From IMG/VR virus record IMGVR_UViG_2531839662_000011: a DNA stretch of 23,270 nt; one strand, given 5' to 3'. Below, piece after piece: positions 3,219-23,270 of this stretch. Position 1 is the first letter of the stretch. Every line of letters begins with the position of its first letter. The notes under the pieces are model-generated. The model ran no database searches. It saw only the letters and a list, made by a program, of their open reading frames with translations, and was not told where the DNA came from. The position numbers were made by a program, and so were the translations under genes. Source of the DNA: a virus (lineage: Duplodnaviria > Heunggongvirae > Uroviricota > Caudoviricetes).

Positions 3219-3863
3219 TTAAACCCCTGCAATATCAAGCGGGATTGCGCGGTATTCATCAGAATCACCGACGCGCTCATACACGCGGATATAGCTTCTG
3301 CTGCCAACCACCTGGACGGCTTCACCAATCAGTTTCATGGCGTTATCCCAGCGTTCCTCCGTAATATCGAGACGACGCAGAGCCAGAACGCGCCCGGTGT
3401 TAATGTTGCCTTCCTTGTCCGTGCTGAATGCCTCGCTGATGATGGCTTTAATTTCAGGGCGTGCACCTTCCGTCCAGTCAGCCAGGCAGTCATCAATCAG
3501 TGCCTTCGCGGTCTGAATGCGTTCATCAAGCGCGATACGGTCCTGCATGGCGCGCTGAATCTTGTAACGCCCGTCAAAGCTGTACAGCGTGATATTCCCT
3601 TTTTTACCGCCTTTCACAGCGCCGTATTTTTTCGCCGACAGGTCAATAAACGCCTGAATATCACCAAAGGCACGTAGTTTCAGTTCACGCAGTGAGGCAG
3701 AGGCAGCAATCACCATCTCCACAAGCTCACCGACCAGCTGCTCACGGTCGCGGTCAATATCTTTGATAAGGCTTTCAGGTGTCATTACGCCACGGGCATC
3801 CACCCAGTAACCTTCAGGTGCTTGAGTTTTCGTGTATTGCTTAACTTTATTTTCAGTCGTCAT
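3219..3863 (-). CDS. conserved Mu-like early protein, 214 aa (possibly DUF3164-like; label from memory)
   Basis: ATG 3863-3861 with GAGGT upstream; protein-like ORF downstream of B; not Gam-like by eye. Confidence 0.6.
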   Translation of the reverse strand: MTTENKVKQYTKTQAPEGYWVDARGVMTPESLIKDIDRDREQLVGELVEMVIAASASLRELKLRAFGDIQAFIDLSAKKYGAVKGGKKGNITLYSFDGRYKIQRAMQDRIALDERIQTAKALIDDCLADWTEGARPEIKAIISEAFSTDKEGNINTGRVLALRRLDITEERWDNAMKLIGEAVQVVGSRSYIRVYERVGDSDEYRAIPLDIAGV

Positions 3864-3892
3864 AATTAAATTACCTCAGTGATATTTACAGA

Positions 3893-4108
3893 TTAATTTG
3901 TGTTATGTGCGCAGGGCGCAGCGTTTTCAGAAAAAATATTCACGCCGTTGTAGTCATTTCTCAGTGCTTCCTTGATAACATCATGCAATCCTGTTGCCAC
4001 CTGAAACTCCCTTTCAGAAGCGCCATCCTTCAAATAACTTCCTGTAATCTGGGTTAAAACCCTGCCTTTTTCATTGGTATAGATAATTACTTCCAACTTA
4101 ACCGCCAT
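3893..4108 (-). CDS. hypothetical small protein, 71 aa
   Basis: ATG 4108-4106 with AAGGAG 6 nt upstream (track start 4129 is TTG). Confidence 0.45.
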   Translation of the reverse strand: MAVKLEVIIYTNEKGRVLTQITGSYLKDGASEREFQVATGLHDVIKEALRNDYNGVNIFSENAAPCAHNTN

Positions 4109-4289
4109 GTTTTTCTCCTTTGAAATCAAACGATTTAAAAATAATTTCGTTCATAAAACAGTGAGTTTTTATGATAATGTCGGAAACCTGCTCTCCCGTG
4201 ACATCAGGCGGCAACTGATACGTCGCGACGGCTTTCTCCGGTTTACCTGGCCTGTCCAGGCTGAAAGTTAATTCAAGCTCCAGTGACAT
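4098..4289 (-). CDS. hypothetical small protein, 63 aa
   Basis: ATG 4289-4287 with GAGGGA upstream. Confidence 0.45.
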   Translation of the reverse strand: MSLELELTFSLDRPGKPEKAVATYQLPPDVTGEQVSDIIIKTHCFMNEIIFKSFDFKGEKHGG

Positions 4290-4299
4290 ATTTCATCCC

Positions 4300-4551
4300 T
4301 CAATGCATTTGTGTTTCTTGAGGAATATACGGACATCCCTGTGCCAGTTGTTTCACGTAGTCATGGTAGATTTGCAGATCAAGCCGTTCATTTCCGTGTT
4401 TCTCCTTCAGAATCGTACAAATAGCGCCAACAGTCCCCAGAGTTCTTGCCGCTTCTTCGAGTGTGGCATTGTCGCCATTTTCCACCCGAATAAGGTTATG
4501 GCACTGGTTATTACCCAGGTCGGTAAATACTATTGTTAATTTCACGCTCAC
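4300..4551 (-). CDS. hypothetical small protein, 83 aa
   Basis: GTG start 4551-4549 with GAGGAA 7 nt upstream. Confidence 0.45.
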   Translation of the reverse strand: MSVKLTIVFTDLGNNQCHNLIRVENGDNATLEEAARTLGTVGAICTILKEKHGNERLDLQIYHDYVKQLAQGCPYIPQETQMH

Positions 4552-4566
4552 TTTTAATTCCTCGTT

Positions 4567-15001: not shown

Positions 15002-15030
15002 AAACGGGCCGCATCGCGACCCGTTTTTTC
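15002..15030. other. stem-loop in D-E intergenic region
   Basis: AAACGGG-(11 nt)-CCCGTTT with T-run on + side and U-rich tract on - side. Confidence 0.3.
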
Positions 15031-20725: not shown

Positions 20726-21245
20726 CAATCCACCTGCCCACGTTTTCACCGGCTTTAGCTGCAACATTGGAGGCTTTCGCGATTTCAGTTTTCACCACAT
20801 CAAGGTGTGACGGTGAAATATCCGGATATTTACGCTGTAATGTCAGCGGCACACGTACAAGTATCCCCGAAATCTCCTGTGCCACACGTTGCAGAATGAA
20901 GGTAAACAATTCTGTTTCCAGCACCAGCCCTTCTTCACGGGCATTTTTCAGCTCCTGTGCGTCAGCCTGTGCTTTGGTTAACCGGTAGCGTTCATAGTCA
21001 ATGGTGCCGGGTTGTAAATCTGATTCTGCAGTCGCACGCAAATCTTCCAGTTCTTTGCGGAGCTTTTCGTTTTCGATATCTTTTTCCCGCTGCGCATACC
21101 ACTCAATGGCTTCTGCAGTATTGAACATGGCTTCGATACCTTTGCCTCCCCCCGACAAAACTCTCAGCCCCTGACTTTGCCAGCCAGTGATTGTTCTGAC
21201 ATCGCACTCAAAAATTTCCGCCAGTTTCTTTTTGTTAACCTTCAC
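20697..21245 (-). CDS. nu1: terminase small subunit, lambda Nu1-like, 182 aa
   Basis: [10 protein letters not shown]...RTI..WQ.QG..VL.GGGKG...ENEKLR.E.E.LR...[26 protein letters not shown] matches lambda Nu1; GTG start. Confidence 0.9.
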
Positions 21246-21440
21246 GGCACATATTCCTCACAAAAAGAAGAAAGGATCTCAAAACGCTTTTTTCAGCGAA
21301 AAATCACCGCTGCCAGATCCTTTCTTTTTTTTAAGAAAACTCTATTAAACAACAGGTTAGCCAGAAGAAGAACGGATCTGCTTTTTCCCTGAAAATTTTC
21401 ATAAATAGCGCGTTTTTGCGCGTCCCCAGACCCTCGGTGT
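21246..21440 (-). promoter_or_regulatory. cos site: cosB with R3/R2/R1-like repeats and cosN candidate
   Basis: revcomp of 21381-21410 has CGCTATTTATGAAAATTTTC identical to lambda; GATCC(G/T)TTCTT repeats at ~21363-21380, 21313-21330 (inverted), 21263-21285; cosN candidate ~21415-21440. Confidence 0.6.
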
Positions 21441-21546
21441 TTCAGGTTCCAGAAAGGACCCGTTGAAATGGGAGTAATTATCATTTACACGCTCTAACAC
21501 CTGCATTATCGCAACCCCTCACACAGAAGGGCTGCTGTAATGCCTG

Positions 21547-21945
21547 TTACTCACGAATCAGGCGAGCACTCTTACCATTCATTTCAATACGCGAATACTG
21601 CGGTTTACCATCAATGATGTCTGTCATCACGAACATCTCACCCGGCTGCAGTTCAACTACTGCGCCTTCCGGCAATTTCATGCAGGCAAATACCGGACAA
21701 CCAGGATGACGATCATCTTCTGTTGCTTCCAGCATTGACTCACCAAACCACTCCGTCGTGGCGCGACCATCAGCTGCTTTGTAGTGGATCAAGTACTGGT
21801 TTTCGCCATCCGCATACTGCGCGCGGGCTTTAACCTCACCCCATTCATCACTGATGCGCATCTCCACCAGTTGAGACAACTCAAACTTAAACGGAGCAGC
21901 ATCAGCACCAATTACAATCGGTTTGCTTTCTGTTTTTTCCATCAT
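21547..21945 (-). CDS. hypothetical protein, 132 aa, between lysis region and cos
   Basis: ATG 21945 or 21942 with AGGAGA SD; protein-like composition; no family recognised. Confidence 0.5.
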   Translation of the reverse strand: MMEKTESKPIVIGADAAPFKFELSQLVEMRISDEWGEVKARAQYADGENQYLIHYKAADGRATTEWFGESMLEATEDDRHPGCPVFACMKLPEGAVVELQPGEMFVMTDIIDGKPQYSRIEMNGKSARLIRE

Positions 21946-22116
21946 CGTCTCCTGATATCAAAGCCCGTCGCCGCACCGGGCACTGATCAACATTTGAGTA
22001 TTCGCGGCGACAGAAAGAATTTATTTTATTGAGTAGCCACAAACACAGAATTTCATGCTTTCCGGACGCTGGCGCACTCTTCATTTTTCAGCAAAATATT
22101 CTGCTCTTACAGGCGA

Positions 22117-22293
22117 TCAGTTCTGCAGACACTGCCGAACACCGTCGACAATTTCACAGACCAGAGAAGCGGTATCGAAAAGCTGGCGCGCTTTATCCAG
22201 GCTGACGCATCCCACCAATAAAAAAGGCACCAGTATCGCTACCCATTTCGCCGCCGTTCGCGGCATTCTGTGTGTCCAGTGTTTTCGCGTCAT
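22117..22293 (-). CDS. small lipoprotein, 58 aa (lipobox LLVGC)
   Basis: Hand-translated MTRKHWTHRMPRTAAKWVAILVPFLLVGCVSLDKARQLF...: basic n-region, hydrophobic core, L-V-G-C lipobox; ATG 1 nt after upstream stop. Confidence 0.4.
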   Translation of the reverse strand: MTRKHWTHRMPRTAAKWVAILVPFLLVGCVSLDKARQLFDTASLVCEIVDGVRQCLQN

Positions 22294-22294
22294 A

Positions 22295-22408
22295 TCACCA
22301 CCAACGCACAGCCCAAATCAGAACAGCGACCGCCACAAGGCGAATTGCAAAGGCCGCAGCCCTTGTCAAATCAAGGCTCGCGGGAGTTTCCACTTCAATA
22401 CCTTTCAT
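22295..22408 (-). CDS. small membrane peptide, 37 aa
   Basis: MKGIEVETPASLDLTRAAAFAIRLVAVAVLIWAVRWW: single C-terminal hydrophobic helix; coupled to lipoprotein ORF; weak SD. Confidence 0.3.
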   Translation of the reverse strand: MKGIEVETPASLDLTRAAAFAIRLVAVAVLIWAVRWW

Positions 22409-22504
22409 AATGGACAACCTCAAAAAGAATCTTTTATACTTTCCCACGAGGATTTTCTCCGTACTCACTACTCACAATTTCCTCTCTGACGTGAAAACTC
22501 AAAA

Positions 22505-22547
22505 CCCCGGACTGTTCCAGCAGCCGGGGTTTGTTTTTTTTATTTAC
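22505..22547. terminator. bidirectional intrinsic terminator
   Basis: Stem CCCCGG(22505-22510)/CCGGGG(22524-22529); TTTGTTTTTTTTATTT on + side, TTTTGAGTTTTC on - side. Confidence 0.5.
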
Positions 22548-22821
22548 TGCCCTGGGTGCGGCATCTGGCTATTTCATTCCTGGCTTTACTGTCACCGCGA
22601 CAGATACAACGCACCGTGTCTCCGGTCAACGTGGTAATGTAAGCCTCATCCTCTTTTTCTACCGGAATACATGGAATATCCCCGCCCCGGCAATACTCAA
22701 TTTTTGCTGCAAGATGAGTGTCACGCGGATAGAACTCCAGACGATACATATCTCCCAGGACATGCACTTCCTCAACCTGGCGACCATCTTCAGTTACGGT
22801 AATTTTTTTCAGTGCGTACAT
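22540..22821 (-). CDS. hypothetical Cys-containing protein, 93 aa
   Basis: In-frame ATG 22821-22819 with GGAGGT 5 nt upstream; track start 22890 (TTG) would run through a terminator hairpin. Confidence 0.45.
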   Translation of the reverse strand: MYALKKITVTEDGRQVEEVHVLGDMYRLEFYPRDTHLAAKIEYCRGGDIPCIPVEKEDEAYITTLTGDTVRCICRGDSKARNEIARCRTQGSK

Positions 22822-22848
22822 ACGTACCTCCGTTCTTTCGTTTTTTGA

Positions 22849-22874
22849 GCAATAAAAAAGCCGCTCATGGCGGC
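22849..22874 (-). terminator. short intrinsic terminator/attenuator after endolysin
   Basis: GC stem GCCGC(22860-22864)/GCGGC(22870-22874), 5-nt loop, then TTTTTTATTG on - strand. Confidence 0.35.
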
Positions 22875-22891
22875 CCTGTATGTTTTGCAAG

Positions 22892-23270
22892 CTATCGCTT
22901 CAATTGAAAATGAGGCCCGTCTTTCAGTGTTTTCCAGTCCCCGCCCCATTCGATGGCAGTTCCCAGCTCTGCGGCAGCCTGCTTAAATGCCTGCGCGATT
23001 TTCTCGTACAGAGGCCAGTCCCATGACACCTGGCTGCCAACCCAGGCCACAACATCCACCGCATCACCGGTCAGGTGGCGGCTGTTCATGGTCTGGCTCT
23101 TGCCTTCTGCAACCGGCGGAGGTAATGCCAGAAATGCCGACACAATATCAACCACCCGATAAAGCTTGAGGTTGCTTTCATGCCCCCCTGCAACGGGTAG
23201 ATTTTGCAGCCTTGCCGCAGCAGTCTGGCGATGTACACCTGACAGTGCCGCCAGTTGACTGATATTCAGC
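22892..23270 (-). CDS. endolysin, peptidase M15 family (T5 Lys-like), N-terminus beyond window
   Basis: SRHLTGDAVDV...FKQAAAELGTAIEWGGDW...DGPHFQL matches T5 endolysin SKHITGDAIDF...FEQAGKELGIKLRFGADW...DGGHVEL; frame open to window edge (no stop 23156-23270). Confidence 0.75.
   Translation of the reverse strand, partial: LNISQLAALSGVHRQTAAARLQNLPVAGGHESNLKLYRVVDIVSAFLALPPPVAEGKSQTMNSRHLTGDAVDVVAWVGSQVSWDWPLYEKIAQAFKQAAAELGTAIEWGGDWKTLKDGPHFQLKR

Follow-up and report, generated by a model that had tools for sequence, protein, structure and literature searches.

A small accessory gene carried behind an intrinsic-terminator-like hairpin in the late region of a lambdoid Escherichia coli prophage

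In phage lambda, the late genes follow the arrangement pR'-qut-tR', and Q-modified RNA polymerase reads through intrinsic terminators at which the unmodified polymerase stops. The stx genes of Stx phages also sit behind tR'. Small additional genes of lambdoid phages, of the HK97 gene 15 type, were reportedly defined as morons by Juhala et al. in 2000. By definition, a moron has its own promoter and terminator, which allow expression from repressed prophages (PMC3594210; Cumby, Davidson & Maxwell 2012). Here we describe a 93-aa gene whose setting recalls each of these arrangements. Like a moron, it is a single small "more on" gene that lies between conserved late genes (after Q, endolysin, head or tail genes) and is shuffled horizontally. 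Like the genes downstream of lambda tR', it lies immediately behind a predicted intrinsic terminator in a presumably Q-controlled late operon and, like spanins (Rz/Rz1) and other lysis accessories, it can be found directly downstream of an endolysin gene. The reading that we prefer, with a probability of roughly 0.6, is that the gene is part of a promoterless, mobile accessory cassette, which sits in the Q-dependent late operon of an E. coli prophage of the lambdoid kind (phiP27 / phiSTEC1575-Stx2k-like).

The window, by which we mean the whole 23,270-nt stretch of DNA that was analysed (IMG/VR record IMGVR_UViG_2531839662_000011), comes from a lambdoid E. coli prophage, of which it is the late region, and is read on the − strand. 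Its identity is 99.6% to the chromosome of UMNF18, a porcine ETEC strain, and 99.4% to ETEC1738. In the prophage of ETEC1738, the closest intact relative, the gene order is Q, four tRNA genes, two holin genes, an M15 endolysin gene and the 93-aa gene, followed further on by terS and terL. The original prediction described the 93-aa gene as a moron-like unit insulated by a terminator on either side, directly after the endolysin. The features of the locus are collected in Table 1.

Table 1. Features of the 93-aa gene and its surroundings in the window.
Feature	Position	Strand	Remarks
Chimeric ORF, running off the window end	22892..23270	−	DUF1441/terS fragment (to about 23102) joined to the 3'-terminal 73 codons of an M15 endolysin gene (23117-22895)
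T1, intrinsic-terminator-like hairpin AGGGCCGC-CATGA-GCGGCUUU	22857..22877	−	Consensus scan and folding
T6 run of T1	22859-22854	−	Overlaps the 3' arm of T1
Shine-Dalgarno sequence GGAGG	22827..22831	−	5 nt 5' of the ATG; sequence read directly
93-aa CDS (MYALKKITV...), phrog_33497	22540..22821	−	ATG at 22821, stop at 22542-22540
T2, strong bidirectional terminator AAACCCCGGCUG...CAGUCCGGGGUUUU	22501..22532	both	Consensus scan and folding
57-aa ORF, phrog_4493	22468-22295	−	C-terminal hydrophobic anchor
58-aa lipoprotein ORF, phrog_7528	22293-22117	−	LLVGC lipobox
132-aa ORF, then Nu1-like terS and terL		−	Beyond the lipoprotein ORF

The 93-aa ORF is a real gene under purifying selection. It was found as predicted, with its start codon behind a strong Shine-Dalgarno sequence, and equivalents of the latter (AAGGA, GAGGA or AGGAG) precede the gene in all homologous loci. 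The protein matched phrog_33497, a PHROG family that carries no functional annotation, over its entire length (residues 1–93 on profile positions 1–95 of 95; E 4.2e-56). We collected 51 homologues in prophages of Enterobacterales, from E. coli, Salmonella, Edwardsiella, Hafnia, Proteus, Providencia and Xenorhabdus. Among 26 distinct alleles, variable sites were distributed 26/23/65 over the three codon positions. The phrog_33497 alignment is strongly conserved at MYALK, GRxVEE, LGxMYRLEF and DEAYITTLTGDTVRxICRG. A longer ORF of 116 aa, starting with TTG at 22890, was rejected, as all homologues begin with MYALK behind the Shine-Dalgarno sequence. The family is small: a profile search of 1.84 billion representatives returned 23 matches, 17 of them at E ≤ 1e-10, and at 50% identity the family comprises about 20 clusters (1.8 billion representatives).

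The cysteine contexts emphasised in the original prediction are present in the window protein and in the E. coli clade. They are not a trait of the family, in which only Cys74 is common. This position is semi-conserved, being Cys in 44 and Ser in 16 of the 61 distinct homologues, and about half of them have other residues in place of Cys44, Cys51, Cys72 and Cys87. A metal-binding or disulfide motif was therefore rejected, as four of the five cysteines lack conservation.

To the 5' side of the gene, the predicted short GC hairpin with a T-run, T1, is present on the − strand. In the window, this copy is unremarkable by itself, since it is of moderate stability (−11.1 kcal/mol, z = −1.75). Its distribution is more informative. 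A GC hairpin precedes the 93-aa gene in 49 of 49 distinct 5' flanks, which together contain 33 distinct hairpin sequences. A T-run follows directly in 31 of these 33 variants and is degenerate in two from Providencia (L017 and L087); in all loci examined, the T-run begins 28–44 nt 5' of the ATG. T1 and the gene are thus co-inherited in all of the loci studied, which span at least five genera as well as an Aeromonadaceae MAG. Among the matches listed, no M15 gene was followed by the same hairpin without the cassette.

The T1 stem also shows compensatory change. The arms read GGTCGC/GCGGCC, GGTCAC/GTGGCC, GATCGC/GCGGTC, CCTCGC/GCGGGG and GGCTGC/GCAGCC in different loci, and GCCGC/GCGGC in the window. 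In an alignment of 30 variants, 91% of the cells were paired. A few rows were scored as unpaired solely because of their 3- or 5-nt loops, and each of these rows folds on its own. Four of the eight stem pairs change on both sides, and cells with a double change numbered 17, versus 3.2 in shuffled alignments (0/500 shuffles). When the pairing partner was slid as a control, pairing fell to 18–65%. T1 therefore has the hallmarks of an intrinsic terminator, namely a GC stem-loop followed by a U-run and maintained by compensatory change, from which we infer that it terminates transcription.

Terminator prediction had been proposed as a check on both hairpins, and the consensus scan picked up T2 as well as T1. 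T2 folds strongly on the − strand (−20.1 kcal/mol, z −4.05) and on the + strand (−21.3 kcal/mol, z −4.7), where it has a U8 tail, and is on these grounds truly bidirectional. The strong bidirectional terminator of the original prediction was thus confirmed as a hairpin, but it is not specific to the gene. The identical 32-nt element occurs 3' of an endolysin gene in E. coli genomes from which the 93-aa gene is missing, and T2 is therefore an element of the phage backbone. A hairpin 3' of the gene is found in most loci and is absent from the Providencia loci. Two further strong terminator-like hairpins lie on the − strand in the structural-gene part of the window, at 15026–15002 (11 pairs) and 13946–13926 (9 pairs), so internal terminators are not unique to the 93-aa gene.

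These last findings bear on the possibility that the hairpins are recombination scars or generic linkers between modules, devoid of a regulatory role, and that the gene is transcribed like any other late gene. Such a reading draws on the sharing of T2 with empty sites, on the other hairpins of the late operon, and on the established lambda biology by which Q-modified polymerase ignores terminators anyway. The maintenance of T1 by compensatory change across genera and contexts is, however, unexpected for a neutral scar, and we regard this explanation as highly improbable.

The ORF that precedes T1 in the window is not an intact endolysin gene. Residues 1–52 of this ORF correspond to a small terminase subunit of the DUF1441/mEp460 type (99.4% nt identity to phage mEp460 terS), and residues 53–125 come from the C-terminal end (73 residues) of an M15 peptidase. 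UMNF18 carries, 1.1 kb upstream of this ORF, a complete holin-holin-M15 set; about 225 bp of the M15 gene are duplicated, and the M15 part of the chimeric ORF is 95% identical to the intact copy. An opposite-strand gene annotated as LPS core heptose(II)-phosphate phosphatase sits between the two M15 copies. The arrangement in UMNF18 (L003 4517–6379) and the window looks like a hybrid junction between two prophages. The statement that the gene lies directly after the endolysin thus fails for the window, where the ORF is a relic made of a terS fragment and an M15 end, but holds for intact relatives, as an intact M15 gene lies directly 5' of the 93-aa gene in ETEC1738 and about 55 other genomes. 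In UMNF18, a tyrosine integrase gene lies beside a phage-borne tRNA-Lys/Thr/Gly cluster upstream of the holin genes (L003 1605–3398). The same place in ETEC1738 is occupied by Q and four tRNA genes, suggesting a further insertion or rearrangement in the UMNF18 prophage.

We then compared about 100 related loci and tallied the upstream neighbours of the 93-aa gene in 55 distinct contexts. The most frequent neighbour was phrog_4298 (17 contexts), followed by an M15_4 endolysin (11), the Q antiterminator (6) and a GH108 endolysin (4). Rarer neighbours included a MuF-like head morphogenesis gene (2), an M15_3 endolysin (1) and a tail terminator gene (1). Overall, the gene has at least seven kinds of upstream neighbour, including three endolysin families. 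Downstream, it is followed by several holin families, the 57-aa protein, a scaffold protein or a major tail protein.

About 80% of the contexts adjoin holin or endolysin genes, and in most of them the 93-aa gene, itself a late-operon gene, is directly after an endolysin or directly before a holin. It might accordingly be thought to encode a lysis accessory or regulator, such as a cytoplasmic modulator of holin timing or endolysin activity. Yet the endolysins that accompany it come from three unrelated families and the holins from several, and it also occurs after the MuF-like head gene and the tail terminator gene. It is absent from phiP27 and from the prophage of E. coli A41 despite the same kind of lysis cassette, and among about 230 genomes that contain the M15 3' end of the window, the cassette is contiguous with it in only 56. 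Moreover, no transmembrane segment, signal peptide or lipobox is visible in the protein, and the match to a known lysis accessory protein that was sought in Pfam, PHROGs and NCBIfam did not appear. On balance, this explanation appears improbable to us. More broadly, a lysis or structural (virion) role is unlikely, because the gene accompanies different lysis systems, close relatives do without it, and it is also found in head and tail modules.

The limits of the mobile unit were apparent from comparison of the window with about 20 loci that have unrelated flanks. Homology starts at 22864–22860, where 22864 is the first base of the 3' arm of T1, and ends at 22490–22523. The mobile unit therefore begins inside the hairpin. 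A pair of E. coli loci illustrates the empty and the filled site. In A41, the order is holin, holin, GH108, a spacer of ~100 nt, T2 and the 57-aa gene. Locus L039 shares GH108, T2 and the 57-aa gene with A41 but carries T1 and the 93-aa ORF between GH108 and T2. The cassette is rare: 79–109 of the 5426 complete E. coli genomes contain it, as does a single one of the 50,697 deposited phage genomes, that of phiSTEC1575-Stx2k.

According to the reading that we prefer, the cassette proper would consist of a terminator hairpin with its T-run, an A-rich leader of about 30 nt, a Shine-Dalgarno sequence and an ORF of 77–110 codons, with no promoter of its own. In the lineage of the window, it would have taken the place of a spacer of roughly 100 nt that ran from the stop codon of the endolysin gene to T2, the resident bidirectional terminator at the end of the lysis genes. 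Insertion at this site, upstream of T2, would explain why the gene seems insulated on either side. Similar terminator sequences on the two flanks could then provide short homologies for swapping the cassette between phages or positions. Two kinds of junction are of interest here. In locus L042, the cassette and a lipoprotein gene meet at a GGTGCCTTTTTTATTG common to both, and in Proteus two similar hairpins flank the 93-aa gene and are nearly identical in L096. These junctions suggest that the terminators may double as recombination joints. A hairpin-bounded element of the IS200/IS605 kind was also considered and was rejected: the downstream hairpins are unrelated between genera, and a transposase relationship is absent.

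The most frequent upstream neighbour raises the possibility of a two-gene module, in which the hairpin would be the terminator of phrog_4298 or an intercistronic attenuator and the window would hold a remnant that lacks the partner. The phrog_4298 product is a 68-aa Cys/His-rich protein (YYVHT..GDxEVH..GCxHMP..NGCYWCCxxCHTS; e.g., L043 3715–3918, L009 4717–4929 and L023 3717–3926). Its gene lies directly upstream of the 93-aa gene in 22 loci (E. coli, Proteus, Providencia, Edwardsiella and the Aeromonadaceae MAG), with a fixed distance of about 65–79 nt from its stop codon to the ATG. It lies downstream in two further loci, and in L043 it is preceded by a promoter-like site. Nevertheless, phrog_4298 is absent from the window and from 84 of 108 loci, and the hairpin stays with the 93-aa gene where phrog_4298 is missing, after Q, endolysin, head and tail genes. 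It may simply be that one hot spot for accessory genes receives both. We consider a true module to be quite improbable.

The question of how the gene is expressed separates the promoterless cassette from a classical moron, that is, an autonomous unit transcribed from its own promoter in the repressed prophage for the benefit of the lysogen. The 93-aa gene resembles a moron in that it is present or absent among close relatives and changes position. A terminator-like hairpin 3' of the gene in most loci and a slightly lower GC content are more ambiguous signs. The GC gap is small, the gene being 48.7% GC, the window 51.9%, the adjacent M15 fragment 58.3% and the next genes 50.7%. Against this reading, a consensus scan of 21000–23270, which weak or non-sigma-70 promoters would escape, found no sigma-70-like site on the − strand, the coding strand of the gene. 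There is no room for a promoter in the cassette because the T-run starts 28–44 nt before the ATG and, with homology starting inside the hairpin, an upstream promoter is not carried along. T1 would, in addition, stop transcription from any promoter further upstream. Unlike a moron, then, the gene has a predicted terminator upstream and a downstream terminator that, in E. coli, belongs to the backbone; expression from a repressed prophage appears unlikely from this layout. As the definition demands both a promoter and a terminator of the gene's own (PMC3594210), we judge the classical moron to be a rather improbable description.

Of the moron-type unit originally predicted, what stands is an optional and shuffled passenger of the late operon, absent from phiP27 and A41. 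What does not stand is its autonomy, as the consensus scan found no promoter and the cassette has no room for one. The cassette is a variant of the moron or accessory-cassette kind and not a strict member of it; in its mode of action it would be closer to a gene located behind a tR'-type terminator. In this sense the 93-aa gene is a well-characterised hypothetical gene and a fairly ordinary moron-like passenger, not a surprise.

Under the promoterless-cassette reading, the predicted terminator directly upstream points to dependence on Q-modified late transcription and not to expression from the repressed prophage. Thus, the 93-aa gene is most likely expressed only by Q-antiterminated late transcription. 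T1 would block ordinary RNA polymerase, so that the protein would be made only under Q-modified, terminator-resistant transcription and would be a late lytic product rather than a lysogenic-conversion factor. A likeness to lambda is seen in Proteus, where about 55 nt lie between the stop codon of Q and the hairpin, which is preceded by the extended −10-like element TGGTATATT. This hairpin sits where a tR'-type terminator would be expected, an assignment made by position. The terminator of the window differs from tR' in that it stands inside the operon, downstream of the lysis genes, instead of close to the promoter.

If this inference holds, not all "morons" are expressed in the lysogen: some accessory genes would move together with a terminator that precedes them and would need antitermination. 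The arrangement would provide tight late-only expression, and terminators would serve as portable recombination joints. It would also affect the annotation of accessory genes in prophages as candidates for lysogenic conversion or virulence; the 93-aa gene is probably neither. One may go further and propose that terminator and gene represent a distinct class of promoterless, "Q-gated" cassettes, in which T1 fully silences a host-harming product in the lysogen and supplies the short conserved homology (GGYCRC-loop-GYGGCC-T6-ATT) for hopping from terminator to terminator among different phages and operon positions, and in which the 93-aa beta protein, whose fold recurs only in uncharacterised proteins of virulent and jumbo phages, is a new late effector that targets the host or its defences. 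We put this forward as a speculation that is unlikely to hold.

The structure prediction that had been suggested for the 93-aa protein yielded a confident AlphaFold2 model (pLDDT 88, pTM 0.75) with seven beta strands and one C-terminal helix, which is variable and basic. The protein is hydrophilic (GRAVY −0.56), with no hydrophobic segment visible in its sequence. Its core is acidic (pI about 5), and its C-terminal tail is basic and varies in length. It is thus predicted to be a soluble, cytoplasmic all-beta domain. Consistent with this model, the earlier view that the protein is not an i-spanin and contains no transmembrane segment appears to hold. Unlike Rz/Rz1, it has no visible transmembrane segment, lipobox or coiled-coil periplasmic domain, and its gene is neither linked to one lysis system nor indispensable in relatives.

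Pfam, NCBIfam and PADLOC scans of the protein returned zero informative matches, and the AlphaFold2 model had no match among solved structures. In a Foldseek search of BFVD, the matches were exclusively uncharacterised phage proteins of 80–110 aa (E 1e-4 to 1e-3, TM 0.6–0.7) from unrelated phages, of rV5-like, T5-like, Felix-like and jumbo types. The modelled fold is thus widespread in phages, and a role is known for none of its members. A match to polyubiquitin in a PDB profile search (E 5e-12) was an artefact, in which nine repeats of about 4 bits, each with an E of about 500, were summed; two long multi-stretch matches in the representative search (P0063 and P0064) likewise consist of many weak repeated stretches. 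Our guess, which is weakly held, is that the protein is made late and binds some component of the host or of a defence system. The family, being confidently folded and having no structural or functional precedent, offers a clean target for a knockout and an expression test.

A side observation concerns Xenorhabdus locus L008, where a gene whose product has Tad2-like and DUF7823 domains (3773–4558) separates Q from the 93-aa gene. Each is followed by a terminator-like hairpin of its own, and a tRNA-like 3' end (…GGTTCGATTC…CCACCA) directly precedes the hairpin. The slot between Q and the holin gene looks like an array of accessory or anti-defence genes; that a Tad2-like anti-defence gene occupies the same slot is a mere hint toward a defence role.

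Further minor observations relate to the DNA beyond T2. The 57-aa and 58-aa ORFs are 1 nt apart, at the place expected for spanins, and are far too short, with the wrong topology, for Rz/Rz1. The signal-peptide part of the lipoprotein gene (about 22240–22205, − strand; also L042 3940–3975 and L043 3508–3540) contains a hairpin followed by T6 (…TACTGGTGCCTTTTTTATTGG). In the 60-aa allele, the scan scores this hairpin as a terminator; in L042, it is the exact joint to the 93-aa cassette. The only result of an Rfam scan of 21000–23270 was a sub-threshold ylbH (E 0.9). The best sigma-70-like match of the whole window, TGGACA-18-TATACT (10/12), lies on the + strand at 22411–22440 and faces into the U8-tailed + side of T2 (22501–22548). 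Together, this site and T2 could give rise to an antisense RNA of ~100 nt (no Rfam match) over the 5' end of the 57-aa ORF.
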